A stretch of 63,902 nucleotides of DNA, counting the filler, from Collodictyon triciliatum (lineage: Eukaryota): the NCBI GenBank assembly GCA_043381765.1. It is 10 parts of 10 records of this genome, joined end to end, with 100 filler letters (N's around TTAATTAATTAA, not from the genome) between each part and the next. Parts side by side here need not be neighbours in the genome. Positions count along the whole stretch, not along the records: positions 46,777 to 53,354 come from JBHJMP010004366.1; positions 53,455 to 60,032 come from JBHJMP010004367.1; 8 more parts are not named here. One strand, written 5' to 3'. How positions within the stretch are numbered: position 1 is the first letter of the stretch; every line of letters begins with the position of its first letter. Below the pieces are notes generated by a model, which did not search any database, was not told the origin of the DNA, and worked only from the letters and a program-made list of their open reading frames with translations. The translations under genes were made by a program, and so were the position numbers. Shown in pieces: positions 12,590-60,032 of the stretch.

Positions 12590-12934
12590 ACCCCGAAAAA
12601 TCAGCTCTGAAACCGAATCTTGGAAGAAGAAAAAAGAAAAGATAAATGCTTGCCCAACATAACTTTCCACCTGCATCACACTATACTTTGTCACATTCTT
12701 CCTTGGATACATTCAAAAAGAATTCATATCGTAGCTGCTTTATAACCTCACAATCACCTTCAACTAAAAGAATATCAGGCATTTGCCCACCCTGTCATTC
12801 CTTTTATTGAATCCTGAAGTATCTTAAGCAGTGAATAAAAATATAGTCTTGATGCATTAATTGACCTAATTTTCCTCTCTAGAATGGACAAGAATATCCT
12901 CATTACCAAATATTGAATAGATGTGATATATAAA

Positions 12935-13269
12935 AGAGGCTTCTGCACCGAATTCACCGATCTTATCAAGAAACTGCATGACAATGCAACAGCGAGGGCA
13001 CTCACGGCACACGGACCTACGGATGCAATTCAAAGACAGAGCGGGGTGTATCAAGGCTACCCACTTGCACCACTGCTCTTAAACTTTGTCACTGACTGCC
13101 TTGCAAACCACTTCCGAAACGAAAACAAGGTGCGCAACCAACTGCTACTTCAATATGCAGACGACACAGTATTCATCTTGCGGTCTCCCGAAGGCGCCAC
13201 ACTCGCCAACAAATGCATGCAAGAATACACACGAGCTGTCGGCGGGAAAATCAACTACGACAAGACAGA
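12935..13269 (+). mobile_element. Non-LTR retrotransposon reverse transcriptase fragment (L1/Tx1-like), cut by the contig end
   Basis: GVYQGYPLAPLL (GVRQGCPLSPLL-type motif), QYADD, KINYDKT. Confidence 0.85.
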
Positions 13270-13533
13270 NNNNNNNNNNNNNNNNNNNNNNNNNNNNNNN
13301 NNNNNNNNNNNNNTTAATTAATTAANNNNNNNNNNNNNNNNNNNNNNNNNNNNNNNNNNNNNNNNNNNNTTTTTCTTTTTCTTTTTCTTTTTCTTTTTCT
13401 TTTTCTTTTTCTTTTTCTTTTTCTTTTTCTTTTTCTTTTTCTTTTTCTTTTTCTTTTTCTTTTTTCTTGTCCATCACCTATCACCCACTACCCATTATCC
13501 GATTATTGTGTGTCTGCGCAGTAAGTAAAGGCG

Positions 13534-15928
13534 GTGCAAACTCTGGTCATAAGGTTATCAGAAAAACTCCTGAACTGCGCCGAGTGCAAGAAATGTGCGT
13601 CCGCTCCGCACTTACTCTCATGCGGACATACCATTTGCTTTGGCTGCATACCCAGTGCTGAAAAAGTTTCGTCAGATATGTTTCACGAGCTCCAAAGCTT
13701 GATTTCTTGTCGCCAGTGCAGGCAACCCACGTTGTTGAATCCAATACTTGAGGACTATCTGCCGTACGCCTACCTGCACGAGAGGCTGTCTGTTGCAGAA
13801 GCTGTTTGCGAAAGCAGAAAAAAGATGCCTTGTGTTGGGTGCTCAAGTGCTTCGGCATTCTATTGCGAATCGGGATGCGGTTCCTTGTGCGTTGTGTGCC
13901 TAGAGAAACACAAATATTTTGAGACAGACTATCCGCACAATGTAGTGTAAGTAAAGGGACTCCTTTTATTGAACCATAATCCAAACTATTAGGAAAGAAA
14001 TTGTATGAGAGTTTATTTAATCACAATAAAATAGCCCATATTTCAACCGATTTCCCAGCGAAACTGAATTCTGTATTACATCCAATTCACGTCATTCGCA
14101 TCCCAGTGAAACAGCACCATTCGAAGATGCAGAATATGCTTGGATATTACAACATTGTCCGAAGCATAACGAGTGTAAGATTGAATGGGCATGCTCATGC
14201 TGTCCTTCGAATCCTTACAAGTGCTCTGCATGTCTGGAAGTTGATAGAATTGCTGGTGATACTCACCTAAATGCTCCTTTGGACAGCGCTGTCAATGGGT
14301 TTATAAAGGAACTCCGTAATTCTATGTCACTTGCTCATTCAAAATTAATTGAAATCGAGAACCTGAGAAGACCGATTGAAAAGCATATACTATCGGTAAT
14401 GAAAACAGACATCGATTAATTGAATCATGAAAAATTAATCTTATTGTGGCTATCACCCAGTATGAATAAATTACCATATGTAACTTCGTTTCCTTGTTTT
14501 AGATAGAAGATGTTTTTTGGGTGAAGTTGAAGAAAATACAGGAGCGCTTTGACTTGTATCACAAGTATCTTCATGAAATGGAAGAGGAAGTCAAAGCAGA
14601 GGTTTTGTACCTTCCAATACCATAGATACAATTGACACTCCATATCTGAACCAGACCCTACACTCGTAATTTCTTTCTAATAATTGATAAATATTGATTG
14701 GTGATTTTTTGAAATAATTAATTACATACCCACTCACAAAAAAAAAAAAAATTGATGAAAGGCTCGAAACTTATGTAATTCTCTCCTGGAGGAAAATCGT
14801 CAGACTGTACAAAAACTAAAAGACTCTGAATGTAATCTCAAGGCATCTATGTGTGCTTGTCAGGAAGCTCTTGAGCTACACAAAAAGTACAACAGTCCGA
14901 TAATGATACCGCCTGTGATAGATTTAATCAATTCTGCAGTCCGGGCAGTATCTTCCTACGAATCGGTTGATATGCCTCAATATACATTCACCGAACATTT
15001 CTTAGATATCATCGTAGTAAGAGCAGAGTATTCCCGATTAGAAGGACACACCAGATGGATACAAGCTCATAAGGAGCCCAAATTAATTCGTGATGTTATG
15101 ACCATAAACAAAGAAATTCGTTCCGTCCGCATATTGCAAGAAACTTCACCAACAACAGCCATCGACGCATTTCAAAATAATAGTATTATTTGCGTCAGTG
15201 GATTTGCAGTAGACCCCAAAAACGGCAGCATATTTCTTACAGATGTCAACCACGGTCTTGTCTATGTCTTTGATTGCGACCTCTATCCCGTTTCAACATT
15301 TGGTGGACGTGGCAACGGACCTGGGGAGCTTACAAACCCCATATCTGTAGCTGTATCACGCGACGGAAGAATCGGGGTTGTAGACTATGGGAATAATCGA
15401 ATTCAAGTGTACGACAGGAACATGGAATGCCCAAAGACGTTGGAGCAGAAGTCTTTGAGAGTAGGCCCGCAGTTTATGATACCAAGGCACATGGTTTTCG
15501 ATTCGATGGGAAACGCCTTCGTCGCTGATTGTGAACTGGTGTCTATCCATAAATGGGATTTGGATGGAAACATGGTCTGCTCCTTTGGTGCCAAGAAAGA
15601 AAACTCTATACAAAGCTTAATGGTAAATGAATCAAATGAGATAATGGCTCTTCGTTACAGCAGTGATGTGGTTGAGTGTTTTTCTAACGATGGTGACTGG
15701 ATTCGCAATATCCCAATCCGAAAGGTCTGTAATATCAGTTTTATCTCACCGAGCGCAGATGGTGGGTTTGTTGTGACAGATTCAGGGGGCGATTGTATTT
15801 TGTTCTATTCAAGGGATGGGACACTCCTCAAATTTATCACAATCCAGAGTCCAATAGGCGCAATTTTTGGACCTTCTGGGGCTTTGTACGTAGTAGCCTC
15901 GAACCCTCAAAGGATTTTCGTTTATTAA
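13534..15928 (+). CDS. RING + two B-box-like domains + coiled coil + NHL beta-propeller (TRIM-NHL-like E3 ligase); multi-exon, 5' end uncertain
   Basis: CAEC..LSCGHTICFGC..CRQC RING; CVGC..YCESGCGSLCVVCLEKH and CPKH..CSCC..CSAC B-box-like segments; NHL repeats such as FGGRGNGPGELTNPISVAV..VVDYGNNRIQVY. Confidence 0.8.
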
Positions 15929-45145: not shown

Positions 45146-46776
45146 GAGGGTGTTAAATTCAGTGCTTCTGGATGTTATTCTTGTTGCTCTGATTGTTTTT
45201 TTGGAGTTTCCTTTATTTGATTCAAAGTATTGTTGTTTGGAGTTGTTTTCATTGGCGCGTTTGTTGCATCCCTTTCTTTTCTGTTCTCGTTGCTGAGTGT
45301 GAGACACGTAATTGTGTGTCAACGCCGATTGGTGGTTACGACACGTGACGTCACAATGATGCCGATGAAGGTGGTTCGTTTTTGTTCCAATTTTGGCCTG
45401 GCTGATAGGTTGTGGGTTGTCGTCACGAAAGAATAAGGTACGGTATAAGTTTAGGGTGTTGGATGGTGGAATCCGCATCTCGTTCGACTGTTCCATGAAC
45501 TAAAAAAAAGAAAGATTGATGAAGGATAATATTCATATGGGTTCTACACTGTTCATATCAACTTTTCAAACTCGATTTTCATGATTTCTGTAAAAAGATA
45601 ATTGGCATGATTCTCGATGTTACGAATATGTTTCTTTTTTAGTTCAAAAAGGCTCCTTTCAATCTAGAAAAGGGTCAGTATGAAACTTTTGAAAAAAAAC
45701 TCTTCATCTGGTTCAAGAGAAGGAAGAATTTTTCGATTTTTTCTACAGCCCGGCCTAACTGTATGTAACTTTTGCATATGCCCTGATAGATTTTGCATCC
45801 ACGCACCGGCCCTGATATATGACAATTTTTGTTTAAATTGCTCCTAGATATTAATTGGGCATGGAGAAACGGGGTTGGTCTTCGTTATGCACTCTAACAG
45901 GAAAGAGGTGGGTACCATGCGAAAAGTTCTTTTGAGAATCAACCCCGTGGATGTATGTCAAACAAAGACAATTAGCTGAAGATAACTCAAGTATCTGCAG
46001 AAGCATTGAAGATACTTGTGTCTCTAGATAATTCAAGCTAATTTTCGCATCTATGTGCGTTTGAGTGTCATGTTACGGACATAACTGGCCCCCTCAACCC
46101 ATAGATTCCAGGGCACTGCATGCGAACGTCGTAGTAATTTTTATAATTGTTAGGTATTCTCACCCTGTGACGGCCTGCGAAAGCGAAAGCAAATAACCCC
46201 ACTTTCCGATATATCTCTTGTGGAATTTACTATAATAATATCAATTGATGTATTTCTACCCTATATTACCATAACCAAGTATACATAATCCTTCAATATA
46301 ATACATATAATTATAAGTGCCCTCTTTAGTCGTTCCCAGAAGGACTTCGTCTTGTTTTCGTCCCATTTTGCTCGCTCAGATCAAACTGGCGGCAGACATA
46401 TAATTGTGTGTATATTTAAGGCTCCACTAGTGTGCGTGAACCAACAGGGAACAAAGCGATGGTCAAGCTTTACACACACCGGTCATCTACTCACCACGGA
46501 CACGGCTAATCAGCAAAGTACGTCGAAAGCTGATATTTTTTTAATCACCCCGACAGGGCGCGTGCTTTCGCACTTGCTATTTTGTTTTTGTTTTTGTTTT
46601 TGTTTTTGTTTTTGTTTTTGTTTTTGTTTTTGTTTTTGTTTTTGTTTTTGTTTTTGTTTTTGTTTTTGTTTTTGTTNNNNNNNNNNNNNNNNNNNNNNNN
46701 NNNNNNNNNNNNNNNNNNNNTTAATTAATTAANNNNNNNNNNNNNNNNNNNNNNNNNNNNNNNNNNNNNNNNNNNN

Positions 46777-48398
46777 TATTCAATAATATCGTCAAATCTA
46801 ACATTAGAATTAAAAGTATTATAAATTAAATCAGTATCAACATAAGAAGAAAATAAAGTGTTGACATCTCGATAATGTATTACATCATTACCTGTAAATA
46901 CAAACATTTTAGTTACAGGATTATAATAACTAGCATTTCCGGCTGCTGTAAATGTTAATGGTACATATGACCAATTAATACCATCTCTCGATACTGCCAT
47001 ATTATTATTTGTCTGTTCCGCGGATGCTATAAAAAAACCACCAAAATCATTAACCCAATTAATACATTGTGCAATAAATGGTAATGTTCCAGGTGAATGC
47101 CAATTAATACCATCTTTCGATATCATAAACGGTCCGTCCGCGGTGTTTGGTGATGTAGTAAATATACCTAATTTAGGACTCCATTCTACAGCCCTTAAAG
47201 GACCATCAACTGTTACTGCTGTAAAAAAATTAGTTAAACCTGTTGGTAAAGATGTACCATTATAATAAAATATTCTTGAACTAGTTCTAGATACTATTAC
47301 ATATCGTTGTAATTGTGGAGAATATGTTATATCAGATAAAAAATTATCAGTTGTATTAGTAATATTACCTTCAGTCCAAGTTAACATATCCGTGGAAATT
47401 TTAACACGTGATTCAATATCAAGTGTTATAAATTGACCATTTATAAATTCTATTTTTTGTACTTGTCTTGCATTTTGCCATGTCTGTGAGTTAACAACTT
47501 GCGTCCAACCTGTTTTAGCTGTTACGTCTGTGGTATAATATAATCGTCGTGCTTGGTTAGATGCTGAAACACAAGCCCATATATTATTACCAAAAGCTAC
47601 AGAGACCACTTGATTCATATTAATAATAGTATTTGTTAATTCTGTCCATGTAGTTAAATTATTAGGTTCTGAAATAAATAATCGCTGATGTCCTGATGTG
47701 GAACTATTACTACATATTACATAAACACCATTTGATGTATTACATGCTATATCTAACAATCTTGATGCTGAGCCTATAGGGTCTAAACCTGTACTAACTG
47801 TAGGTGTTAATATTAATGAATAATTGGGAGTATAAGCATTAAAATTACTAGGACCATTTACATTAACTGTTTTCATATTTGTATTATTAGAAGTATTTAA
47901 ACCAATATTAAAATTAGTTCTTGTTAATTCTGTTGATAAAATACCATTTACAATAGCCCATAATCGGGGATCTGTTGCGGCATTTGTTTGCTCGCCTGCA
48001 TATCCTGTATTAGTAGATTGAAAATTAAAATTTAAACCGGGAACTGTTGAAGATTGTGAACCATTATTACAATTAACGCGATTATAATATATTGATTGGT
48101 TAACATTCATTTCTTGAAGTAATGCGCCACCGATATTAAATCTTAATCTATCAATACCACTAGAAAATTCATATGATAAACCAGTATCGGCACCACTTAC
48201 AGATTTAAAGGAATAAGAGGGTAATAATGAAGTACCATCGCCCGCGTAAAAATTATTTGCTGATATTGTGCTGCTTGATAATTGATCTGACCAATTAACA
48301 AATAGACCGTTATTATCTATTTTTAATATTTTATTGGCATCAGTTGTTGTAAAGCTTGGTAAATCATTATTTGAATCTGATTGCTCGTAATATGACAT
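46777..48398 (-). CDS. Putative fibre/spike protein with a beta-propeller region, 3' truncated
   Basis: Tail-fibre-like GDGTSLLPSYSF..DTGL repeat; propeller blades VAFGNNIW, ITYSPQL, VEWSPKLG; Asp-box-like SKDGINW and SRDGINW. Confidence 0.65.
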
Positions 48399-48430
48399 AT
48401 ATATAATATATTTATATATTTTTATTTATT

Positions 48431-49168
48431 TTAAAATGCAATTACTTTTAATGTGAAATTAAAATCAATGTTATAATCTGTATTACTTATAGCTCTACCA
48501 TTTGGATATATTAATCTAAAATTCCATTGATATGGTATAACATCACAACTTAAATAATTTATTTCTGTTAATTCTTGGTATACATGACTGTTTCTATTTG
48601 TTAATAATGATATTTTAAATAATATATTATTACCTTGTATATTAGCCGAATTATTAGAACTATTTAAATTATTACTAACTAAATATACATAACTATAAGG
48701 CCTTAGATTTAATTGAAATGGTAAATATGAATTACTCGTAGATGTTGAATAATCAACAGAAAACCCTAAAACATCTTTAATGGTTGATGATGATTTTAAT
48801 ATAATATTACTTGATGAATTACCTTTAACAACTGTTAATTTATTATTTTTTTCATCATAACCCCATGATAAAGAATTACCAGTAAAAGTAATAGCATTTA
48901 AAACAACTAATAATTCATTTACTTTATATGTAGCATCTGATATATATATAACTCTATCTGTCGCACCTTCTAATATGTGAAGTTCATTATTAGTTGAATT
49001 AATTTGATAAAATGATGTTGATATATTTATTGATTTTAACCCAACTAAACCGCTATTTTTATTACCTTTATTTTTTGTATTTGTAATTATAGTAAAGTCA
49101 GTAGGTGTTCCATTGTTTCGAAATGCTGAATCAACATATAAATAATATTCATCGGTTTCTTTATTCAT
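48431..49168 (-). CDS. Putative minor capsid (penton) protein
   Basis: N-terminal YVDSAFR..DF, beta-rich, C-terminal FNFTLKV; typical of PLV single-jelly-roll pentons; homologous to 55524..56291. Confidence 0.75.
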   Translation of the reverse strand: MNKETDEYYLYVDSAFRNNGTPTDFTIITNTKNKGNKNSGLVGLKSINISTSFYQINSTNNELHILEGATDRVIYISDATYKVNELLVVLNAITFTGNSLSWGYDEKNNKLTVVKGNSSSNIILKSSSTIKDVLGFSVDYSTSTSNSYLPFQLNLRPYSYVYLVSNNLNSSNNSANIQGNNILFKISLLTNRNSHVYQELTEINYLSCDVIPYQWNFRLIYPNGRAISNTDYNIDFNFTLKVIAF

Positions 49169-49215
49169 ATATAAATATGTTATATAAAATTTTTTTATAT
49201 TTTATTAATATATAT

Positions 49216-49575
49216 ATGGAAGAAATACAAAAAGAAGAAATAAAAGAAGACACAATAGAAAAACCAAAAAAACAAAAAAAACAAATTTCAGAAAGACAAG
49301 CGGAAGCATTAAGACTCAATAGATTAAAGGCAACAGAAAAAACGAAAGAGAACGCACAATTAGTTAAAACAATTAAACAATATAATTTAATGCCTGCTTT
49401 AGCGCCTAAAAATAATAATATAGATGAATTAAAAAATGAATTAAAATATATTCGGGACTTTGTTGATGAAACTAAAAAACGAAAAGAAGAGAAGAAAAAA
49501 GCAAAAGAACTAGTAGAAAAAGATGAATATTATAACTATATCAATAATGTAAATAATGATATTTTTTTTAGATAA
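49216..49575 (+). CDS. Small basic coiled-coil protein conserved in both viral elements
   Basis: Start re-assigned to ATG 49216 after a TATATA run; SERQAEAL..KATE..KTIKQY aligns with 56326..56673. Confidence 0.75.
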   Translation: MEEIQKEEIKEDTIEKPKKQKKQISERQAEALRLNRLKATEKTKENAQLVKTIKQYNLMPALAPKNNNIDELKNELKYIRDFVDETKKRKEEKKKAKELVEKDEYYNYINNVNNDIFFR

Positions 49576-49584
49576 CTATTATAT

Positions 49585-50298
49585 ATGGATATACAAAAAA
49601 TAAATGATATTGAAATAAAACCAATAACAAAAGTAAAGAAAAAAAATAAAGTTATACCTGACCCATTATGTGACCCTCACGCTGAAAGACCATTTTTATA
49701 TATTATATCATCAAAAACAGGAAGCGGAAAAAGTGTATTAATTAGTAATATATTAAAGAATATATATTATCATTATTTTAATAATGTTTATTTCTGTTCT
49801 TCAAATGTTGATAATGGAATGATATATGATGTAGCATATGATAAAGTTAAAATATCAGATAAAAGAATATTTGATACTTTTAATGAAGAAATAATGGAAT
49901 ACATAGTTAATGATATAAGAAGCGATGAAGATTTTGAAGATAGCCAATATTTATTAATAATAGATGATTTACCGACAGAATTAAATAAAAGAACATCGCG
50001 AATAGTAAAGCATTTTTTAAAACATCGACATATACATTTATCTATTATTATTGTCACTCAGAAATTAAATTTATTAAATACTGCTATTCGTGGAAATGCT
50101 ACACATTTAATATCATTCTTTACAAATAATAAAAAAGAAAGAGAGACAATGACAGAAATGACAGATAATGATAATTTTTTAAAATATTTAGATTATGCCA
50201 CACAAGAACCTTATAATTTTTTATTTGTTGATTTATTAAAAAATCCCGCTAAATTTTATAAAAATTTTAACTTTGAGCTTAAAATAAATGATAATTAA
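49585..50298 (+). CDS. A32-like (FtsK/HerA superfamily) DNA packaging ATPase
   Basis: Walker A KTGSGKS, Walker B LLIIDD, A32-type RH..SIIIVTQ, IRGNA. Confidence 0.9.
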   Translation: MDIQKINDIEIKPITKVKKKNKVIPDPLCDPHAERPFLYIISSKTGSGKSVLISNILKNIYYHYFNNVYFCSSNVDNGMIYDVAYDKVKISDKRIFDTFNEEIMEYIVNDIRSDEDFEDSQYLLIIDDLPTELNKRTSRIVKHFLKHRHIHLSIIIVTQKLNLLNTAIRGNATHLISFFTNNKKERETMTEMTDNDNFLKYLDYATQEPYNFLFVDLLKNPAKFYKNFNFELKINDN

Positions 50299-50933
50299 TT
50301 ATTAAAAACTGAATTATATATTATTGGTAATTCATTTTTAAATATATCTTTTATTTTTTCCGCTATTAATCTATGTTCTTTTTGTGTGTGTTCATCTAAT
50401 CTAACATTTAAATAATGTATCCATGACCTTATATTACCATTCATATATATTCTTGATAGTTCATTCACTCCTAAAATTACCCTCGCGCTTTCACATGCTA
50501 CATTATCACTTATCATCTTATTATATAATTCGTTTATTTGTGAATATATTTTATAATATTCTTGTTTATATTCATCATTTTTAGGATGTGTTAAAAATGA
50601 TGATTGCCTATTTGTATTATGTTTTATTCTAAAATCCGGCTCAATAATATCACTAGATAATTTATTTTTATTTTGGTATCTCATAGAAAACATTTGAAAA
50701 CTAAAGCTTTTATGTCTTATAATCTGCGTTATAATATATAATGGTGCCGTTATTTCAATACACATATTACTCATTTCAAATATTGACCAATGACTATTTT
50801 TAATACAATAATTTATTAGTTTTGTATCTAGACTATCTGGATTACTAGATGATACACGGGCACATTTTAATATAATATTTTCAGCATTTGGTGTAACCCA
50901 TATTAAATTAACTTCATAATTAAATAATGACAT
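50295..50933 (-). CDS. thyX: FAD-dependent thymidylate synthase
   Basis: HWSIFE, QIIRHKSFSFQMFSMRY (ThyX motif), ESARVIL, RSWIHY..R..TQKEHR. Confidence 0.93.
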   Translation of the reverse strand: MSLFNYEVNLIWVTPNAENIILKCARVSSSNPDSLDTKLINYCIKNSHWSIFEMSNMCIEITAPLYIITQIIRHKSFSFQMFSMRYQNKNKLSSDIIEPDFRIKHNTNRQSSFLTHPKNDEYKQEYYKIYSQINELYNKMISDNVACESARVILGVNELSRIYMNGNIRSWIHYLNVRLDEHTQKEHRLIAEKIKDIFKNELPIIYNSVFNN

Positions 50934-50944
50934 TAATATAATTA

Positions 50945-51304
50945 TTATATATATTTTATAAAATAATTATAATTAACACGGTTAGGTATTAAAAATATTA
51001 TTTTATTGTATATTTCATTATTTGAGCATTTTATATCAACATTTTTTAAATATGGAACACATAATAAATCTAATAATATTTTATTATATTCTTCTTTATA
51101 ATAACAACATATAATATTTATTTCTGTTATTAAATGTAAAGGTATTTTTTTATTATAAAACTTTAAATTATAATCTAAAGGTAATATAATATTATTATCA
51201 TTAAATGATATTATTATTTCTATTGTTTCATCCATCATATATATTGTCATATATGAATTTGTATAATCAAGACTATCAAAATTATTATATAACACTCTAG
51301 GCAT
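50945..51304 (-). CDS. Hypothetical viral protein (119 aa)
   Basis: Open ORF in very AT-rich DNA, ending 11 bp upstream of the thyX start on the same strand. Confidence 0.55.
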   Translation of the reverse strand: MPRVLYNNFDSLDYTNSYMTIYMMDETIEIIISFNDNNIILPLDYNLKFYNKKIPLHLITEINIICCYYKEEYNKILLDLLCVPYLKNVDIKCSNNEIYNKIIFLIPNRVNYNYFIKYI

Positions 51305-51315
51305 AATAAAATATT

Positions 51316-51350
51316 TTTATAAAATAATTTTTAAAAAATTATTTTATAAA
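51316..51350. promoter_or_regulatory. 35-bp perfect AT palindrome (17-bp arms, 1-nt centre) between divergent genes
   Basis: TTTATAAAATAATTTTT-A-AAAAATTATTTTATAAA; function inferred only. Confidence 0.5.
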
Positions 51351-51377
51351 TTAATTATATATAGAATTATTTATTTA

Positions 51378-51761
51378 ATGAATAATTTAATTTATAATAA
51401 TATGCAAATGACAAAGTTAAGAAATGATATCCATAATATTATTAAAGATCTTAATTTAATATATCATAATATTCAAATGAATTTAAATAAAGAAAACGAA
51501 CTTTATAATAATAATAATAATGTTATTGATAGAACTATACATGAAAACACGCCGGAAATTAAAATAAAGACAAAGATAAATAATTTGTCTTTACAACTAG
51601 AAAATAAAATAGATGATCCATTTATTAAAAAAGAATTACCTAAAGAATTAAAAAAAAGAGGAAGAAAAAAGAAAGTAATTATAATAGATGAAGACACTAA
51701 TAATATATTAAAAGACAGTAAATATGAATTACTTATTGACGAAGGAATTATTAATACTTAA
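51378..51761 (+). CDS. Hypothetical viral protein with a KKRGRKKK basic (AT-hook/NLS-like) motif
   Basis: ORF track; N-terminal coiled-coil-like segment. Confidence 0.55.
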   Translation: MNNLIYNNMQMTKLRNDIHNIIKDLNLIYHNIQMNLNKENELYNNNNNVIDRTIHENTPEIKIKTKINNLSLQLENKIDDPFIKKELPKELKKRGRKKKVIIIDEDTNNILKDSKYELLIDEGIINT

Positions 51762-51980
51762 TGAATTTTCAAAATTTAAATAATGTTTTTTATTTTTTAA
51801 ATGTCTTGATTTATTAGATAAATCATAATCTTTATTACAATATTCACAATGAAATTTTTTATTTTTTGTTACTAACTGATAATAATTAATAAAATAACCT
51901 TCTTCTTTTATTTTGTTATTATATTTTTGTTTTGATGTTAATTTTATTTCATTAAATAAATCTTTATTATCAACATTCAT
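51729..51980 (-). CDS. Small C2H2 zinc-finger protein
   Basis: FHCEYC-x11-HLKNKKH. Confidence 0.75.
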   Translation of the reverse strand: MNVDNKDLFNEIKLTSKQKYNNKIKEEGYFINYYQLVTKNKKFHCEYCNKDYDLSNKSRHLKNKKHYLNFENSLSINNSFVNK

Positions 51981-52015
51981 AATAAATATATATACTATTA
52001 TATATATTTATTTCT

Positions 52016-53260
52016 TTAAGTTAATTTAATATTAACGAATTTTTCCCCTTCATATTTAAAATCTCCTATGTTGTCACTTATTGATAAATAATCATCTAAT
52101 GGAATTTTTGAATATAAACTGTCAGTATGAACATATACTATATTATTAATAATAGGGTTTAATATTTTTGTAAAATGTTTTCTTGAAGAACTATATAAAA
52201 AAGGTTTCATTCTTGGTAATGCGCCCTTATAAAAAAATGACTTATTATATAATGTTACTTCATATCCCCCACTATTCATTGGTTCAATTTTAAAATCTTT
52301 ATTATCATATATTATAAATTCCTCATCGCTTTTTATTTTTTTAACTACTTTATCAGATTCAACCAAAGCACCAAATAATATATTTAATAGATCTTTAATA
52401 ATATATTTTTGTTTAATGTTTTTCTTTTTTAAATTATATAAATATGTCACGTATTCATTAAATATGTCTGAACTATTAATACAATCTTTATTATCATATA
52501 TCAAAGCGTTATATTCTTCATCCATATTTAATTTAAATTTAAACCCTAGCTTATGAGCTTCTAATATATCAGTATGTGTATAAGTATCATTTTTATTTTG
52601 TTTAAATATTCCCGGTTTAAAATTAGAGATAGAACCTTTATAAATACCAATACTTATATTATTATAATCTATATCATCATCATTTAATTTATAAAATTTA
52701 CCTTCTTTAACTGGTATTTTAATATTTAATTGTGATAATACAAAAGGATAAAAGCTGTTTATATCATATGTATAAACTTTACCTGAATATTCTTTTTTAT
52801 ATTGAATGGCACCTAATACTGAATCTTCTAAAAAATTAACTTCTAGTTCTGATTTAACCGGTGATATTATTTTATATAGATCTTTATTAAAATCAAAAAA
52901 TAATTTAATAGCTAAGTTCTTAACTGAAGGATTAATAAATAAATTAATAGTTTCATTAGTAATTTTTTTTAATTCTATAGCATCATTATAAATTTGTTTA
53001 TGACAATCAATAATATTAATATGTTTATCCTCTTCTTTACAATATGAACAATATGAACACTTACTAACAATATTATATTGTGTTTTTCCTGCCATTGAAT
53101 CACTTATTAGCTTACGTCCTTTTATTAAATCTTCTTCAACTATAAACTTTTTATTACTTACTAAAAATAATACTTTATTATCTACAAATTCATAAAATAA
53201 TATTTCTTTCTCTTTATATAAGTTAATGCCATTTAAATAAATGTTTGTTTTACAATCCAT
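52016..53260 (-). CDS. Minimal family B DNA polymerase-like protein (pPolB-related)
   Basis: Motif A YDINSFYP, motif B KDLLNILFG, YSSSR, motif C variant YVHTDS, IGDFKYE; only 414 aa, with no recognisable Exo I-III motifs. Confidence 0.8.
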   Translation of the reverse strand: MDCKTNIYLNGINLYKEKEILFYEFVDNKVLFLVSNKKFIVEEDLIKGRKLISDSMAGKTQYNIVSKCSYCSYCKEEDKHINIIDCHKQIYNDAIELKKITNETINLFINPSVKNLAIKLFFDFNKDLYKIISPVKSELEVNFLEDSVLGAIQYKKEYSGKVYTYDINSFYPFVLSQLNIKIPVKEGKFYKLNDDDIDYNNISIGIYKGSISNFKPGIFKQNKNDTYTHTDILEAHKLGFKFKLNMDEEYNALIYDNKDCINSSDIFNEYVTYLYNLKKKNIKQKYIIKDLLNILFGALVESDKVVKKIKSDEEFIIYDNKDFKIEPMNSGGYEVTLYNKSFFYKGALPRMKPFLYSSSRKHFTKILNPIINNIVYVHTDSLYSKIPLDDYLSISDNIGDFKYEGEKFVNIKLT

Positions 53261-53454
53261 AATATATAATAAAATATAAAAATATTTCTTTAAGTCATTT
53301 TCAATTTATTATTTAAAATTTATATTTTAAAATCGCCCCTTCCTTCCCTCCATTNNNNNNNNNNNNNNNNNNNNNNNNNNNNNNNNNNNNNNNNNNNNTT
53401 AATTAATTAANNNNNNNNNNNNNNNNNNNNNNNNNNNNNNNNNNNNNNNNNNNN

Positions 53455-55508
53455 CACTTGTTTAATGTTTTTTGACACATAATTGTCCAGCATGACCCAA
53501 TTGGAATATTTTTAGATTCGCCAGCATTGAAAGCTGTTTGTGTGCCATCGGACCACAAATTTACACTATCTGAAGTAAATTCTACTTGAGCAAAAGCACT
53601 TGCGAACCCACCCTGGTCAAGGTGTATAATTTTAATAGTCCATCCATCTGGAATACTAGCAGTATTTGCAGACGGAAGCAATAATTTTGCGGTTACAGTG
53701 TGTTGCTGAGGACGACTAATAAAATATATCGGAGGACTATTAGTACCGAGAGTTATAATTCCTGACGTGTTATGGTTCGCATAATCTTGGATTGGGCATT
53801 TTGTTTGTTCAATATGTTTCTCAAATTCGGATCTATCAGGTCTAAAAATTACATTCCGACTCGTATTGACAGTAATACTTACAAAAAATTGTGAGCTCTC
53901 TGTCCCACCTCTGATGCAATTTGTTAACGAAGAAACAGTACCAAACCTAACTTCCTGCCCCGAAGGTAATTCTACACGAGTCGCCTCAACAGTTCCACCC
54001 ACGGTTAGATTATTTGTGATCGATGCGCTACCCGAAGAACTGAACCCGGTAGCTGTAACCGTCCCTGGAAAAGTTGCATTGCTTGCCATCCAATGTGAAT
54101 TAATGTACCAGATATTATTATGAAATGTACAGTGAAGAGATGCGCGTGTTGATACATCGACTGTCGTAGTAAAATTATTTGTTAGCCCTCCTTGATAAAC
54201 TCGTAAAGTAACACCCGCAATTGGCGTTAATTGAAGAACAGCGCCTGATAAATTGCTATTCGGCACAATATAAAATGACATTCCATTTGTAAAGCCAGAG
54301 CTAAGAAATCTTAATACCACAGGTGTAAAACCCCCCATATCAACTATAACATTGTTACTAAATGTTGCGCCCAGGTCGAAAGTTTGAGCGTTGGCAGTTA
54401 CAGTAATTACATTGGTTGGTTGAATGATCTGTTGAGATAACGTTAAATTTCCCGTAAGATTTGCGCCCGTATTATTTATATTCAGTCTTTCTACACCATT
54501 AGTTCCAATAAATATATTGTTGTCCGTGCCCCACAATCCACTGGGTGTTGTTGTGTCATTAAATAACAGAGACGGGGCAGCTGCCGATCCTGCTGTTGTA
54601 AGATTTAACTGTCCTGCTATGTTATTTGTTCCTGTGCCTTGTACAATTAAATTTGATGTAATTGTTAAATTACCAATGACTCCGTTTTTATCTGTACCGT
54701 GACGTATAATTAACCAGCTTGTTAAACTTGCAAAATACACACATTGGTAAATATAGCCAATTGTAATAATAACAGCTGGAGGTATTGTTCCACTGCCTGT
54801 ATTGGGAATTACATTCCTTGCACCATCATAATAAGTTTCCATACTAATGGATGTACTACTTGTAGTAAGCGTACAAGTGAATGTTCCGCCAGAAGCAAAT
54901 GGATTAAACCAAAATTGTGTCCCATTTGCTAAAGCTGGTAATGTATATGTTACATTATTATTTGTATAATTGATGCGTTGAAAAGTCGGATCGCTTTGAA
55001 CCACTGTTCTACTAGTACCAAATGAAGTAAAGGTGAAACAAAGTCCATTATTTATTACTAATGGAACAGACATAGTACTACCATTAGAATCCCACGTCTG
55101 TCTTGCAACATTTCCAGTAATTATTCCCATTACATTGGTCGATGAAAGCCCATAAAGGCCCGTATTGCTGGCACCAATTCTTAACCCCGAACCGCTTCCA
55201 GATCCAGTTCGAATAATATCTATAGTTGGGTTGTCAGTAAATGTATATGTACCGGCACCTGTTGAATTTAGAATTTGACCTGTAGCTGATGGAGTCGGGA
55301 CCTGGTTCACTACAGCCCACGACGGCACTGACCCGTTCGTCGTCAGAAAACGTCCAGCATTCCCCGTTTGACTAGGCAGCTCAGCCGGTGCTACTGTTTC
55401 CTGCAGCCACTGTAAATAAAGCCCACTTGAATCTACTTTCAAAATTTTGTTTGCGTCTGTATTGGAAAATTCCGGTAGTTCCTTTTCTTCTGTTATGAAA
55501 AAACCCAT
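53455..55508 (-). CDS. Putative fibre/spike protein, 3' truncated
   Basis: Thr/Gly/Ser/Asn-rich; tail-fibre-like motifs LPSQTGNAGRFLTTNGSVPSW and GSAAAPSLLF; N-terminus shared with the element A fibre. Confidence 0.65.
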
Positions 55509-55523
55509 ATTCTAGGCAAGAAA

Positions 55524-56291
55524 TTAAAAGTCTGGAATAATCCGCAGCGTGAAGCTGTAGTCCTGAATTTGATTAATTGTCTGCCCCAGTCTGTCGACCA
55601 ACCGGAAATTCCAGCTGAACGGAATATAACTGCAGTCCATCAGATTCTCTAGGATATTGTCATTTACCTCATAGTAACTCGAGTACCGTGAACCAACACT
55701 CAGCGGTATTTTTGCGATAATGCCATTGCCGCCGATGTTGCTGGCAAAACTTGACGACTGAATATTGGGGCTGACTAAATACACGTAATCAAACGGACGG
55801 ACATTGACCATATTCTGCAGCTCAACAAACGACGTATTGAACGAGAGATTGGCCGTCAGTCCAATCAGGTCCCGGCACGTCGACGAATTCACAAACAGTT
55901 GATATGATATACTAGCACCGTCTCCTTTGATAGCAATCTTTTGTTTGCCAGTAAGAAATGAAACTGAAACAACTGCATTAGCTGACTGGGATGCTGTGAC
56001 TGCGTTCATTTTTGTTCTAATGTCACTGACTATTTCATTGATGGTTTGTAATCCAGTTTCAAGTGACACATTGTATGAAACGGGGCTGCCTGCTCCGACT
56101 TGGCAAAGAAAAGCCAATTCATTGTTGGCGGATGTGACATTGTGCACGGCATAAGGTATTTGAATACTTTCAAGTGCGACCCTGGCACTGCTTGCCACGT
56201 ATCTGTTTTGAGTTGTTGCAAAATTAAAGTCTGATATACTGCCGCTTTCTCTGTTGGCTGAATCGACGTGAATGTAATAAGCTCTCTCCAT
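55524..56291 (-). CDS. Putative minor capsid (penton) protein
   Basis: YYIHVDSANR..DF, NVRPFDYVYLVS, WNFRL, YSFTLRI; homologous to 48431..49168. Confidence 0.75.
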   Translation of the reverse strand: MERAYYIHVDSANRESGSISDFNFATTQNRYVASSARVALESIQIPYAVHNVTSANNELAFLCQVGAGSPVSYNVSLETGLQTINEIVSDIRTKMNAVTASQSANAVVSVSFLTGKQKIAIKGDGASISYQLFVNSSTCRDLIGLTANLSFNTSFVELQNMVNVRPFDYVYLVSPNIQSSSFASNIGGNGIIAKIPLSVGSRYSSYYEVNDNILENLMDCSYIPFSWNFRLVDRLGQTINQIQDYSFTLRIIPDF

Positions 56292-56325
56292 ATTCTACCC
56301 CAGAAATTATTTTCTTGGGAATTGT
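56292..56325. promoter_or_regulatory. 34-bp candidate bidirectional promoter with inverted TTTCT boxes, each 10 nt from an ATG
   Basis: AGAAA-TTAT-TTTCT at 56302-56315; same spacing recurs at 55519-55523 and 56665-56669. Confidence 0.6.
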
Positions 56326-56673
56326 ATGAGTGATTCTGAAAACGAAATGAATACCATCGAAAAAAAAACGAAACCAAAACGAGTTGCATCGGAAAAACAG
56401 AGAGCGCATCTTGCGAAAATTCAGCCCAAGGCAACGGAGGCCAAGAAAAAAAATAAAGAAGTCATTCAGACCATAAAAACTTACCAAAAAGCCACAGCTC
56501 CATCAAACGAGCTAGGAGAACTAAAATCTGAAATGGCCAAAGTCGTAAAGTACCTGACACAGCAAGAAAACTATAAAATACAAAAACGCGCCCAGAAAAA
56601 AGCTCAAGCAGAAGCAATAGATAAAGAAACAACACAAGCTTACGCATATGATGTTAACAATTTATTTCGCTAA
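56326..56673 (+). CDS. Small basic coiled-coil protein (homologue of 49216..49575)
   Basis: SEKQRAHL..KATE..QTIKTY..ELKSE..NNLFR. Confidence 0.75.
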   Translation: MSDSENEMNTIEKKTKPKRVASEKQRAHLAKIQPKATEAKKKNKEVIQTIKTYQKATAPSNELGELKSEMAKVVKYLTQQENYKIQKRAQKKAQAEAIDKETTQAYAYDVNNLFR

Positions 56674-56679
56674 TAATAT

Positions 56680-57402
56680 ATGGAAGAAAAAAAAGTAAAC
56701 AACTTTAAGGTCGAGCCCCTGACTGTTATCAAAAAAAGCAAGCGACAAATTATGATTGAAGCATTACCAGACCCAGCAGAAACTCGGCCGTACTTAATGC
56801 TTATCAGTGCTAAGACGGGCTCAGGTAAAAGTATCTTGATCGCGAATTTGCTTAGAAAAAAAGAGCTGTATTACAAGTATTATGCAAAGTGTTATTTTTG
56901 TTCTAGTAATATGGTGGATGGTAAGATATCGGATGTGGCCTATCAGGGAATCAGATTTGCAAAGGCTCGTAGCTTTGATAATTTTACTGATGAAATATTT
57001 GACACAATTCTTCAGGACATAACCAAGGACGACGACTGGAAGGACGAGCAGTATCTGCTGGTGCTCGACGATTTGTCCACGGTGTTTGAACGGCCGACCA
57101 AACAGATGCTCAAAAACTTTCTTAAACATCGGCATTATAATCTCAGTATTATAATTGTGAGCCAGGCCATACGACTGATGAATCCAAAGCTAAGACAGAA
57201 TGCCACACACTTGATTTCGTTTTACACAAGTAATCAAAGGGAGCGTGAGGCGCTTAATGAATTGACGAATTTGTCGCAGAGCAAGTTTGATGAACTCCTG
57301 GAATATTGCACGGACGAGAATTATTGTTTTATGTTTATAGATTTGCTGCAGCCCAGGAAGCCAAAGATATACAAGAATTTCAACTCTGAAATCGTTTATT
57401 AG
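56680..57402 (+). CDS. A32-like DNA packaging ATPase
   Basis: KTGSGKS, LLVLDD, KHRHYNLSIIIVSQ, LRQNATH. Confidence 0.9.
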   Translation: MEEKKVNNFKVEPLTVIKKSKRQIMIEALPDPAETRPYLMLISAKTGSGKSILIANLLRKKELYYKYYAKCYFCSSNMVDGKISDVAYQGIRFAKARSFDNFTDEIFDTILQDITKDDDWKDEQYLLVLDDLSTVFERPTKQMLKNFLKHRHYNLSIIIVSQAIRLMNPKLRQNATHLISFYTSNQREREALNELTNLSQSKFDELLEYCTDENYCFMFIDLLQPRKPKIYKNFNSEIVY

Positions 57403-57888
57403 ATCAAATAAATTTGTCTGAACTAATATGTTCAAACTAATTATTAATGACACTACTTATGAATTTGAATCGTGGGAGGACCTGCAGGTTTTTCTGTATT
57501 CTCTGGAAAAAGCAAACAAGAAGAAGCAAAAGAAAAAGGTACTGGACGCAATATATAAAGTCGTGACCTATGATTCATTTCGCATTGTCTTTGAATGAAA
57601 GCCGGCCCCCTCCAACAATTTTCCGCCTCTAAATTCATTTAATTGATGTTGAGGTTGATGGTTAGTGGCTAAGAATTTTTCCTGCCCAAATCCTTTATAT
57701 ATTCTTCTTTTTTTTATTTTAAAATTTTAAAATTTTAAAAAAATAAAATAGAAAAATATAGGCGATTGGAGCCCGGGGTTTTTGCCTCCAGCTCCACCAT
57801 ACCGATCATCAAGCGGAGGCGGAAAGTTGTTGGAGGGGAGAGATTTTTTTTAAAATGTTGGCTTAAAACTATCCCCATATATAAGATT

Positions 57889-60032
57889 ATGAACGCAACA
57901 ATGGATCTCAAGACATTTATTGAAAAGCAAAACATCCCATATGCCTTTGCCTGGTATATGAAAACATCTGAAGGCGAAAAGATGACAGTTATTGAAAACA
58001 GTAATTGTAAGTTGGATGAATTAGAAAAGTGGAGGGACCAATCACGCAGTATGTTCAAGGACTATTGTTATGTCCTGAAACGAAATTTAAGAAAGGAAGA
58101 AAAGAAAGACTGTCAAAGAGTTTTTTCTTTGTTTTTAAAACACGACCCGAGTCTAGTGTGTATAGACTGTGACGATAAAAATATCCAAGACCCAGATGAA
58201 CTGGGTAAAGCTTTGGGTATTCCTGCAATCAATAATTCAATGTGTTGGACCAAGGGCAACACGAAAGGATTTCACATATATGTGCGAGATCCAAATTTTA
58301 ATAGAAGGTATGAGGGCATTAAAGTATTTGGCCCGGAGATTCCTGTTGATATCATCAAGTACGTAAGAAATGTTTGGGAAGACGAAAACAAGATTATTTA
58401 TAATGCAGAGTGCATTACAGAATTGAATTTATCGGAAATATTAATTCAAAAGAAACGCAAGGTTCACATTGAGGAATCAACTGAGGAATCAGCTAACGAA
58501 TCTGAACCAAAGTTGCCAAAACTTGGACTGGAGCAAAAAGAATTTCAGTCTGACTTCCACAGACAATGTTTTGTCGAATTCATGTTACAGAAGGCAGTTC
58601 TTAATCAATATTTTGCCAATATGCAAGGTGACTATGCTCAGTGGATAAAGATAGGTTACGCTCTAATTCACGAAAACATTTCATGTATAGACACTTACTG
58701 GTTAATAATTAGTCAGCAACTGCCCGACGACAAGCAATCTACCAACTTGGATAAATTACAGACTCTACGGGAATTACAAAGAAATGTAGAAATGAAAGTT
58801 TGCACAAAAGCTGTTTCTTACAAATACATTTTACAATTAATCAAAGACAGCCAACCACAAGTTGTATTTTCAAATTTTATGACTGATGTACAGGGGGGTC
58901 ACGTAGCACATTACCGGGAGCAGTATTATAAAAAAACAAAAGAAGAATTTGAAGCCAATCATTTTCAGTTCTATGGCAAAACAGTGCTTGTGATGGAGAA
59001 TTTCTCACTCAAGTTTTACAATCCATCTGACGCCAAGTTGCAGTATGCGCATTTGAATTTTTCTTTTCAAAAAGTTCATTTTAATTTCATGAATACATGG
59101 GTGGAAGACAAGAACAAGAGACAAATCACAAAATTAGTTTTGCGTCCTGACTGGCCCAAGAAATTAGAGTGCCCAAAAACCTACAATACATTTCAGGGAT
59201 ATGAGATTGAGAAAGTAGGAGATATTCGCCAATTGTTAAATAAGGAGGAGGAATTAGATTACAAAGAAAACAATCACATTCATCAGCTGATTGCCAAGTT
59301 GAGCAATTACAATTTCAAGGTGATGGAGGAGATAATTCAGTGGGTTGCGCATCTGATATTTGCACCGCAAGATATGGGTAGATTCCACACGGCGATGGTA
59401 TTTTATTCCCAGACAGAGGGCACAGGTAAGTCTTTGTTTACGCAAGATTTGTTATTGAAAAAAATTATTGGAACATGTTATGGAACAAAGACATCGAAGA
59501 TGGACGACTTGTTTGGAACCTTTAATGATATACTTGAAAACAAAGTTTATGTATTATTGGAGGAAGGTAAGAGAAAAGACGGGGTTGAATTTTCTGATGT
59601 TATGAAAGATTCTTTGGTTTCAGATACATTGGTGATTCATAAAAAAGGTTGCGACCGATATACAACTAATAATTGTGTGCATCTGATTATAAACACAAAC
59701 AATGAGACGGTTGTATCTGTGGACAATTCAAACAGAAGATATTTTTTGATTCACACAGACGAAAACAAATTATCAGTAAATGAAATTTTATTGAAAAAGG
59801 TTTTGGAAGATATATCAAGTCCTGATAAATGTTTACAGTTTGTGAGATATCTTTACACTAAATTTGATCCGAGTTGGAATAGTGAAAAATACATTGTGAA
59901 TGAGCAGGTTGAGCATGAGCATTTCAAAACTCATTTACAAGACCAGATTTCACAGACTGACCAGTTTTTATTAATTGCTTGTGAGGACGATGAAGTACGA
60001 ATTCAACACAAGTTAACTGATTCATTGAAAGG
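57889..60032 (+). CDS. D5-like primase-helicase (AEP/prim-pol + PriCT-2-like + SF3 helicase), 3' truncated
   Basis: CIDCD and KGFHIY primase motifs; YAQWIKIGYAL; Walker A EGTGKS, Walker B VLLEE, motif C IINTNN; first ATG at 57889. Confidence 0.88.

Follow-up and report, generated by a model that had tools for sequence, protein, structure and literature searches.

Two probable Polinton-like viruses in a Collodictyon triciliatum assembly share a structural gene core and differ in the replication genes that follow it

Polinton-like viruses (PLVs) have small linear double-stranded DNA genomes (about 14-40 kb), often with terminal inverted repeats (TIRs). The 63.9-kb stretch of the Collodictyon triciliatum assembly GCA_043381765.1 analysed here – the window, made of whole contigs chained with spacers of N runs around TTAATTAATTAA – includes two contigs of 6578 bp apiece that encode viral genes, contig A (positions 46777-53354) and contig B (53455-60032). 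We conclude that A and B are very probably genomes of two related, non-sister freshwater PLVs, members of the Polisuviricotina with a double jelly-roll (DJR) capsid, which share a core of structural genes and carry different replication genes downstream of the packaging ATPase. Both genomes are incomplete, because both fibre genes are cut at the left contig ends and the B primase-helicase gene is cut at the right end. The two contigs lie side by side in the window on account of their equal size (contigs being sorted by length), not of any biological linkage.

The sequence-only reading that preceded this analysis had described fibre, penton, basic protein and ATPase genes in the same order and orientation on both contigs (−, −, +, +), and this arrangement is borne out, with all four proteins alignable by BLASTP. 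The ATPases are 48% identical over 238 aa (E 2e-80), the pentons 34% over 252 aa (E 4e-35) and the basic proteins 34% over 112 aa (E 8e-12); the fibres align only in the N-terminal ~58 aa (40%, E 2e-8). The strings quoted earlier as common to the two contigs (RPFLYIISSKTGSGKS / RPYLMLISAKTGSGKS, FLKHRH, NATHLISF, YKNFN, YVYLVS and WNFRL) are all seen in the ATPase and penton alignments. Contig A encodes the penton, a single-jelly-roll vertex protein of 245 aa, at 48431-49168 (−), a small basic protein of 118 aa (pI 9.2; no Pfam family) at 49219-49575 (+), and a 237-aa A32-type packaging ATPase at 49585-50298 (+). Their B counterparts lie at 55524-56291 (−; 255 aa, 90% identical to the pentons of metagenome loci L001 and L002), 56326-56673 (+; 115 aa, pI 9.7) and 56680-57402 (+; 240 aa, 100% identical to the L001 ATPase). 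Both ATPases match Pox_A32 (PF04665; 43.1 bits for A and 35.9 for B, cutoff 22.8) and have Walker A (GSGKS) and Walker B (IIDD) motifs, in which GSGKS and DD are invariant across 14 sequences. A profile of 14 penton homologues matches the P1 protein of Paramecium bursaria chlorella virus 1 (PBCV-1), which we take to be the penton of that virus, in two structures (6ncl_a6, E 3.2e-5; 8h2i P1v1, E 3.3e-5). None of the 14 pentons had a Pfam match better than chance, and an Atlas search returned unnamed viral clusters and one DUF5901 lead, present in 13% of members.

The assignment to PLVs follows from the penton match, the A32 ATPase and what relatives of the two contigs encode. A search with an ATPase alignment identified 32 metagenome loci that encode an ATPase relative; against IMG/VR, the ATPase as a single protein gave no match and the alignment only two distant loci. 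Locus L001 (12.9 kb) is ~90% identical to B in DNA from the fibre 5′ end through the contig end, and the ATPases of L004 (14.8 kb) and L012 (16.4 kb) are 97% and 59% identical to that of B; four short contigs (L016, L017, L025 and L032) are 84-93% identical to A, and a public contig of 14.3 kb encodes an ATPase that differs from the A protein by a single residue. The relatives thus span 12.9-16.4 kb, against 6.6-kb fragments in the window. Clustering of open reading frames (ORFs) recovered a protein of 533-589 aa (family F7) common to L012, L004, L026, L028, L023 and L030. An AlphaFold model of the L012 member (L012:164-1765; mean predicted local distance difference test score [pLDDT] 51, predicted template modelling score 0.53) has 103 matches in BFVD at E<=1e-3, headed by capsid proteins of ascovirus, adintovirus, adomavirus, African swine fever virus, MELD-virus, virophage and mavirus; the model is of low confidence and its matches are consistent, and F7 is probably the DJR major capsid protein (MCP) of these relatives. 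This MCP candidate itself has no match in PDB sequences, Pfam or PHROGs. Integrases of the rve type are encoded by L004, L007 (by homology, family F9), L013 and L037, with a weaker match in L026 (22.8 bits, cutoff 32.6). L026 also has TIRs of 69 nt (91% identical, at 50-118 and 15535-15603); it is the only one of seven loci scanned to have them, none of 15 loci has direct terminal repeats, and no clear TIR joins the L029 tail to L028, a comparison outside which the far end of that contig lies. The call of PLV-type viruses in the sequence-only reading is upheld by these matches.

Two further large proteins were observed among the relatives. The gene for a conserved protein of 1188-1368 aa (family F11; L012:2174-5740, L001:424-4452 and L004:1351-5457, all +) separates the MCP region from the fibre gene; the protein belongs to no Pfam or PHROG family. 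L026 (15.6 kb) encodes a 1262-aa PolB-like protein (11095-14883, −; family F23, as in L021) with an Endonuclease VII insert; it has no polymerase family match of its own, and the L021 member of F23 matches a phage DNA polymerase family.

A and B had also been proposed to be sisters, which the ATPase phylogeny does not support. In a maximum-likelihood tree of 29 rows, A groups with L016 and L017 (support 100/98), beside a clade of L018-L020 (86/93), and B falls in an 11-row clade (100/100) within a 15-row clade (98/97). The two well-supported subclades meet only at a polytomy that also includes L021, L027 and a clade of L023, L024, L026, L028 and L030.

The replication genes differ sharply, and the B relatives define the point at which they do so. 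Members of the 11-row clade have ATPases at least 92% identical to that of B, and six of these contigs reach the next large gene. Among these six are five types of primase-helicase (B/L001, L004, L007, L009 and L010), pairwise only 24-33% identical and all with DUF5906. A conserved stretch follows the B ATPase (57403-57598), and blastn homology to B then ends at B:4144 (window ~57598) in five of five loci (L004-L008), all of which run on beyond that point; position ~57598 is therefore the left edge of a variable replicase slot. Comparison of L001 with L004 delimits the slot on both sides: their DNA is 82-89% identical over penton, basic protein and ATPase genes, nothing is alignable between the ATPase and the replicase stop codon, and the two are alike again 6-16 bp past that stop; L007 and L004 show the same pattern. 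In the A lineage, A and L017 are 92-99% identical in DNA through the ATPase, then 63-73% in the following thyX gene, with the break at the convergent ends of the ATPase and thyX genes. These comparisons support the region just 3′ of the ATPase as a real recombination boundary in both lineages, as judged from the alignments. The module exchange at the ATPase 3′ end proposed from A and B themselves is thus seen as shared breakpoints, clearest in the B relatives and also visible as the drop between A and L017.

The gene in the B slot (57901-60032, +; 710 aa seen, with the 3′ end cut by the contig end) encodes the primase fused to a superfamily 3 (SF3) helicase that had been predicted there, with DUF5906 at 56.9 bits (cutoff 27.6) and the phrog_1156 DNA primase family at E 7e-14; it is 85.6% identical to the L001 protein. 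In its N-terminal part PriCT_2 matches at E 0.0038 (18 bits, under the cutoff of 22) and phrog_3022 matches residues 37-146 at E 0.0028. The motifs CIDxD and GxHIYV and residue D150 are conserved in this domain, as read by eye, and presumably correspond to the motifs of archaeo-eukaryotic primases (AEPs).

An inverted repeat precedes the primase-helicase, with 23-nt GC-rich arms at 57607-57629 and 57816-57838 and an AT-rich palindrome at 57709-57756. Its score of 20 was reached by none of 100 shuffles, and it is a candidate origin or regulatory element. Upstream inverted repeats of differing sequence beat all 100 shuffles in four of eight cassettes (B, L004, L012 and L014).

The slot of contig A is filled differently. 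Downstream of the ATPase and convergent with it is thyX (50295-50933, −; 212 aa), a flavin-dependent thymidylate synthase gene whose product matches Thy1 (PF02511) at 137.8 bits, residues 10-203 aligning to positions 2-190 of the 191-position profile; its string RHKSFSFQMFSMR resembles what we take to be the ThyX signature, with K in place of R as its third residue. The L028 thyX product is 67% identical to this protein. Two ORFs follow (50945-51304, −, 119 aa; 51378-51761, +, 127 aa), with no Pfam family and no homologue among the fetched metagenome loci. A C2H2-like zinc-finger protein (51729-51980, −; 83 aa) is encoded directly downstream of a family B DNA polymerase (PolB) gene (52016-53260, −; 414 aa). 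The thyX and PolB identifications made from sequence alone are reproduced by Pfam; the finger has a weak zf-C2H2_4 match (E 0.053) and a readable spacing, CxxC-x12-H-x5-H, and a homologue of 96-99 aa (family F15) lies at the same place beside PolB in L028/L029. The whole set – thyX, zinc finger and short PolB – recurs in L028/L029, with an ATPase only 42% identical to that of A. The closest homologues of the A thyX product, all of them unnamed proteins from metagenomes, are 46-82% identical to it. Many are encoded on contigs of 9-17 kb, an indication that thyX is widespread among elements of PLV size; it is not mentioned in the PLV texts searched. In L028 a GIY-YIG endonuclease gene (11472-11933, +), possibly a homing endonuclease at a mosaic boundary, was seen between thyX and the PolB module.

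The polymerase of contig A is of the protein-primed type found in mavirus. It matches DNA_pol_B_2 at 36.5 bits (cutoff 25.8), and its structure is predicted with high confidence (pLDDT 92.2). Residues 15-414 of the model superpose on residues 3-497 of phi29 polymerase (Z 20.3, root-mean-square deviation 4.8, 349 residues aligned), and in BFVD the mavirus polymerase ranks first (E 2.3e-23, TMq 0.76), followed by one fragment from a giant-virus metagenome-assembled genome (MAG) and then a next tier at E 1e-13. The polymerase motifs are A, DxxSxYP; B, KxxxNxxxG; and C, xTD. Residues D166, S169, Y171, K289, G297, T379 and D380 show little or no variation among 39 short forms, with motifs A and B kept; of 154 family members, 130 have HTD as motif C. 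No acidic residue before E140 is invariant or nearly so among the 39 short forms, and conserved exonuclease residues are accordingly not seen, although the N-terminal part of the A model still superposes on the phi29 exonuclease region.

The family is large: cluster representatives number 2184 at E<=1e-3, of which 599 remain at E<=1e-30. It comprises two length classes, of about 350-500 aa and about 600-750 aa. On a hidden Markov model (HMM) built from 84 long forms, the A protein spans positions 206-600 of 612; a string with an OTU-like cysteine, present in 76 of the 84 long forms, lies within the part that A lacks, and no ORF of contig A matches the terminal-protein/vOTU N-terminal region of that HMM. 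The 'minimal PolB' of the sequence-only reading is thus a mavirus-type protein-primed PolB lacking the terminal-protein and vOTU domains. The PLV and mavirus texts searched gave no description of a short form without terminal protein, and we make no claim that none exists. Searches with the L029 PolB against the PDB (phmmer) gave chance-level matches only; in IMG/VR, a PolB alignment (A2) found one partial locus, L035, and a degenerate PolB pattern found L037 and one unrelated contig, L036.

Larger contigs suggest what this polymerase works with. L029 overlaps L028 at 100% identity over 4272 bp, so the two represent one virus of about 15 kb. Its PolB is 32% identical to that of A, and a D5-like SF3 helicase (phrog_1156 at E 1e-23; D5_N) is encoded at the opposite end. 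A 127-aa ORF observed beside this helicase (L028:2186-2569, +) matches positions 31-112 of the long-form HMM at E 9e-6, and its product is a candidate stand-alone terminal protein. L037, a mavirus-like IMG/VR contig of 14.2 kb, encodes a long PolB, rve integrase, a stand-alone DUF5906 helicase, a Ulp1-like protease and an A32 ATPase. An SF3 helicase is therefore present in two of the three larger contigs with this PolB family, and since L028+L029 and L037 pair the two, A may carry an SF3 helicase beyond its left end. The earlier proposal that A and B use unrelated modules as alternatives stands only in part. The type of polymerase does differ: B-lineage loci L001, L004 and L012 (12.9, 14.8 and 16.4 kb) have no BLASTP match to the A PolB and no DNA_pol_B_2. 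The notion that PolB takes the place of a helicase is not supported, as both L028+L029, with the A-type module, and L037 encode this PolB family together with an SF3 helicase.

The upstream regions of the replication genes share several features, which we record as observations. A promoter-like 13-mer, ACTTAAAGAAATA, lies upstream of the A PolB gene (53283-53295, −), and again at 52009-52021, ahead of the zinc-finger gene; these are the only exact copies in the window, and two or more arose in 6 of 100 shuffles, which is weak statistical support. By eye, the A and L029 PolB genes have a common upstream string, GAyTTAArGAAA. Structural genes of the B lineage (55509-55530 and 56292-56325 in the window; L001, L004 and L012) share an upstream A(T)TTTCT-N5-8-A-rich-ATG, and replication genes share GGCTTAAA-like upstream strings, both also read by eye; these strings from A and B are possible early and late promoter motifs. 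In L029, two direct repeats of ~145 bp (5800-6050) precede the short PolB gene, each with GC-rich inverted arms GGCGGCGG.../...CCGCCGCC around a common AT-rich core, an arrangement also seen in the repeat ahead of the B primase-helicase. The end of contig A (53329-53354) is GC-rich and lies in an AT-rich non-coding leader upstream of PolB; the contig stops where this GC-rich stretch starts, at a position matching the L029 repeats.

At the other end of the core, the fibre genes are also mosaic. The A fibre gene (46777-48398, −) encodes 540 aa before its 3′ end is cut by the contig end, and the B fibre gene (53455-55508, −), cut in the same manner, 684 aa. The distal 1 kb of the B fibre gene (53455-54455 against L012:5799-6799) is 84% identical in DNA, although the ATPases of the two are just 59% identical; L001 has an ATPase identical to that of B, yet its fibre body differs. 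A and L025 are 100% identical over the basic protein and ATPase genes and 60-74% in the 5′ part of the fibre gene, and the A fibre is 43% identical to that of L026 over 515 aa. By these comparisons, distal fibre domains are exchanged between lineages. The C-terminal half of the A fibre (46777-47400, residues ~335-480) has three S-x-D-x-x-x-W strings (STDMLTWT, SKDGINWH and SRDGINWS) that resemble the Asp-box/BNR repeats of beta-propeller glycosidases; Pfam gave no match.

We propose that a conserved core of penton, small basic protein and A32 ATPase would be flanked by two recombination-prone positions, the fibre and the replication slot. The conserved N-terminal ~60 aa of the fibre may anchor it to the vertex, leaving the distal part free to be exchanged, and the replication slot begins no more than about 200 bp past the stop codon of the ATPase gene. 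For the B lineage, this slot holds an inverted repeat and an AEP-like primase fused to an SF3 helicase, which we read as swapped as a unit between otherwise near-identical genomes; the repeat may be the cognate origin or control region, and would hence travel with its replicase. In the A lineage, thyX may supply thymidine monophosphate (dTMP) for a genome of 23% GC, and the short PolB would work with a separate terminal-protein-like protein and an SF3 helicase encoded in the unassembled part, as in L028+L029. A bolder version, which we put forward tentatively and consider somewhat improbable, is that the slot is a hot-swap site for self-contained replicons, each with its own origin-like repeat and replicase and moving autonomously between co-infecting PLVs, and that the short PolB of 400-460 aa belongs to an undescribed split mavirus-type replisome of palm-only polymerase, stand-alone terminal-protein-like protein and stand-alone SF3 helicase.

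Several observations weigh against parts of this account. The MCP model is of low confidence, neither A nor B itself contains an MCP, integrase, TIR or host junction, and membership of the PLVs leans partly on relatives. Residues 1-250 of the B replicase match no Pfam family at E<=0.01 and a PDB profile search returned none, so the AEP domain is argued from the weak phrog_3022 match, the sub-threshold PriCT_2 match and the motifs read by eye. Inverted repeats as strong as those seen arose by shuffling in 1 of 100 trials for L009 and 4 of 100 for L001, both borderline, and in 22 of 100 for L007 and 52 of 100 for L010, which is not significant. The origin role of the repeat is one that we infer, as are the partnership of the A PolB with a separate terminal protein and helicase and the dTMP role of thyX. 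L035, with a partial PolB, has no helicase match in the 10.3 kb examined, and metagenome contigs can be strain chimeras.

How these viruses live is a separate question. The idea that they depend, like virophages, on a co-infecting giant virus and its transcription machinery is conceivable, and we hold it to be somewhat doubtful. The mavirus-like fold of the A PolB points that way, as do the upstream strings common to B-lineage structural genes (ATTTTCT...ATG) and the GGCTTAAA-like strings of replication genes, the naming of L028/L033 within a giant-virus MAG bin, and the co-occurrence of mavirus-type protein-primed PolB (pPolB) elements with Nucleocytoviricota that is described in the available part of Wei et al. 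2026 (PMC13215967). The window itself contains no giant-virus sequence, the motifs are eye-read and the one that was put to a shuffle test was weak, and neither lineage encodes a virophage-type protease or lipase; moreover, at least one cultured PLV replicates autonomously, according to Barth et al. 2026 (10.64898/2026.10.13.758929). Two IMG/VR records, L033 (the same as L028) and L034, are named within giant-virus MAG bins, a case of PLVs binned together with Nucleocytoviricota.

It is less likely still that A and B are endogenous, integrated in the genome of the sequenced protist. They were assembled alongside eukaryote-like contigs, integration is possible in that close B relatives (L004, L007 and L013) have rve integrases, and the GC content of B (38.0%) is inside the range of the remaining window contigs (33-44%). 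Set against this, neither contig has host flanks, the ends lying in viral genes or viral leader, and A at 22.6% GC is far under all other contigs; the contrast in base composition between A and B noted at the outset is accordingly real. All ORFs of A and B are intact, as had been stated, and open under the standard code, which rules out an alternative genetic code. DNA 82-100% identical to A or B overall is present in public lake metagenome contigs: 82-93% for B, with ATPases 92-100% identical, and 84-93% for A in many contigs. Sampled words of A turn up in 20 runs, which belong to 10 studies of freshwater, sediment, aquaculture and riverine metagenomes, at shares of up to 66%, implying roughly 1-2% divergence; no RNA run was listed as having them. 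The suggestion of an undescribed lineage associated with this protist is overstated, common as near-identical DNA is in public freshwater metagenomes and with no host junction on either contig. A and B may come from free virions, from episomes that replicate or from environmental virus that contaminated the sequenced material.

A further possibility, and an improbable one, is that complete genomes of both lineages hold a PolB and a primase-helicase in different places, so that A and B would reflect rearrangement and not a swap. The D5-like helicase that accompanies thyX and short PolB in L028+L029 and the DUF5906 helicase that accompanies the long PolB in L037 are in keeping with this, and pMVRE group 1 usually pairs pPolB with DUF5906 in the available part of Wei et al. 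2026 (PMC13215967). The B-lineage loci L001, L004 and L012 speak against it in lacking a match to the A PolB or DNA_pol_B_2, and the L028 helicase lies outside the slot after the ATPase and is without the N-terminal AEP part in the stretch examined. Bacterial tectivirus-like phages from contaminating bacteria – also built on a DJR capsid, an A32/FtsK-type ATPase and a protein-primed PolB, with some phage capsid proteins among the lower MCP fold matches (ranks 41 and 46) – can be given almost no weight, as tblastn with the ATPase found no match in 50,697 phage records, MCP, penton and fibre match no PHROG family, the penton profile points to chlorovirus P1, eukaryotic viruses head the fold matches of both MCP and PolB, and relatives have rve integrases and TIRs.

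The remaining window contigs are eukaryote-like, with Roc-COR and protein-kinase ORFs, NHL repeats and microsatellites, and none has viral genes. Two adjoining long ORFs at 8083-11670 (+) on a host contig carry Roc, COR-A and protein kinase domains and probably make up a single ROCO-type kinase gene, divided by an intron or a change of frame, which fits a eukaryotic (protist) host. A (TTTTTG)n microsatellite (46600-46676) extends to the end of the host contig preceding contig A; it is on a separate contig from A and forms no junction with it.

A and B add little alone, and their module exchange is an instance of a published PLV pattern; what is modestly new is the replicase slot, with its five types and inverted repeats, along with the split short form of mavirus-type PolB. 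The metagenome relatives form an unusually clean natural series, with one penton-ATPase core, five primase-helicases and sharp breakpoints, usable to test cassette movement and whether cassettes carry their own origins. The short PolBs form a common and compact family, with at least 599 representatives at E<=1e-30, and their confident structure prediction makes them practical enzymes for assays of protein priming by a separate terminal protein. The genome project should treat A and B as viral, and take them for host sequence only if junction evidence supports it.

Among known systems, A and B most resemble the PLVs (Aquintoviricetes, Polisuviricotina) of Bellas & Sommaruga, which, as far as the available parts of those papers go, they match in the DJR MCP (in relatives), penton and A32 ATPase, in relatives' genomes of about 13-16 kb, in freshwater origin and in the switching of replication modules within one capsid group; they differ in that the MCP is not on contigs A and B. 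Capsid groups holding both Polinton-type and helicase-primase-type genomes were described by Bellas & Sommaruga 2021 (PMC7805220), and switches between pPolB and AEP-SF3 modules are reported as common in all PLV groups by Bellas & Sommaruga 2026 (10.64898/2026.06.19.733378), each seen here in part. The accessible part of Barth, Ha & Aylward 2026 (10.64898/2026.10.13.758929) reports that replication and morphogenetic modules reassociate, that some genomes have several replicases, that repeats bracket replicases and that homing endonucleases lie nearby. Our contigs resemble that picture of replicase turnover in the Polisuviricotina in their conserved morphogenetic modules with differing replicases and in the GIY-YIG gene near the L028 replicase. 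Compared with that part of the study, we find that a single fixed slot holds five AEP-SF3 types in viruses whose ATPases are at least 92% identical, with breakpoints mapped to tens of bases and each type having its own upstream sequence; the data sets may overlap, and the metagenome contigs used for comparison may already be catalogued.

The mavirus PolB, in the portion of Krupovic et al. 2024 (PMC11161782) consulted, has a terminal protein-vOTU-palm organisation, has lost most of the exonuclease, lacks the first Asp of motif C while remaining active, and is accompanied by a separate SF3 helicase; mavirus-type pPolBs are likewise paired with DUF5906 in pMVRE group 1 (Wei et al. 2026, PMC13215967, in part). 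The A PolB is like these in its best fold match, in the HTD of motif C and in the absence of conserved exonuclease carboxylates among the 39 short forms, and the stand-alone SF3 helicases of L028+L029 and L037 recall the same pairing. It differs as a 414-aa short form without the ~205 N-terminal terminal-protein-vOTU positions, and in L028 the terminal-protein-like piece is a separate 127-aa gene. To Mavericks/Polintons, defined by pPolB, rve integrase and Ulp1-like protease, the likeness lies in the large PolB-like proteins of L026 and L021 (F23) and in the sub-threshold rve-like ORF and TIRs of L026; A and B themselves encode neither integrase nor Ulp1-type protease, the B relatives have rve and no PolB, and contig B carries a primase-helicase in place of a pPolB.

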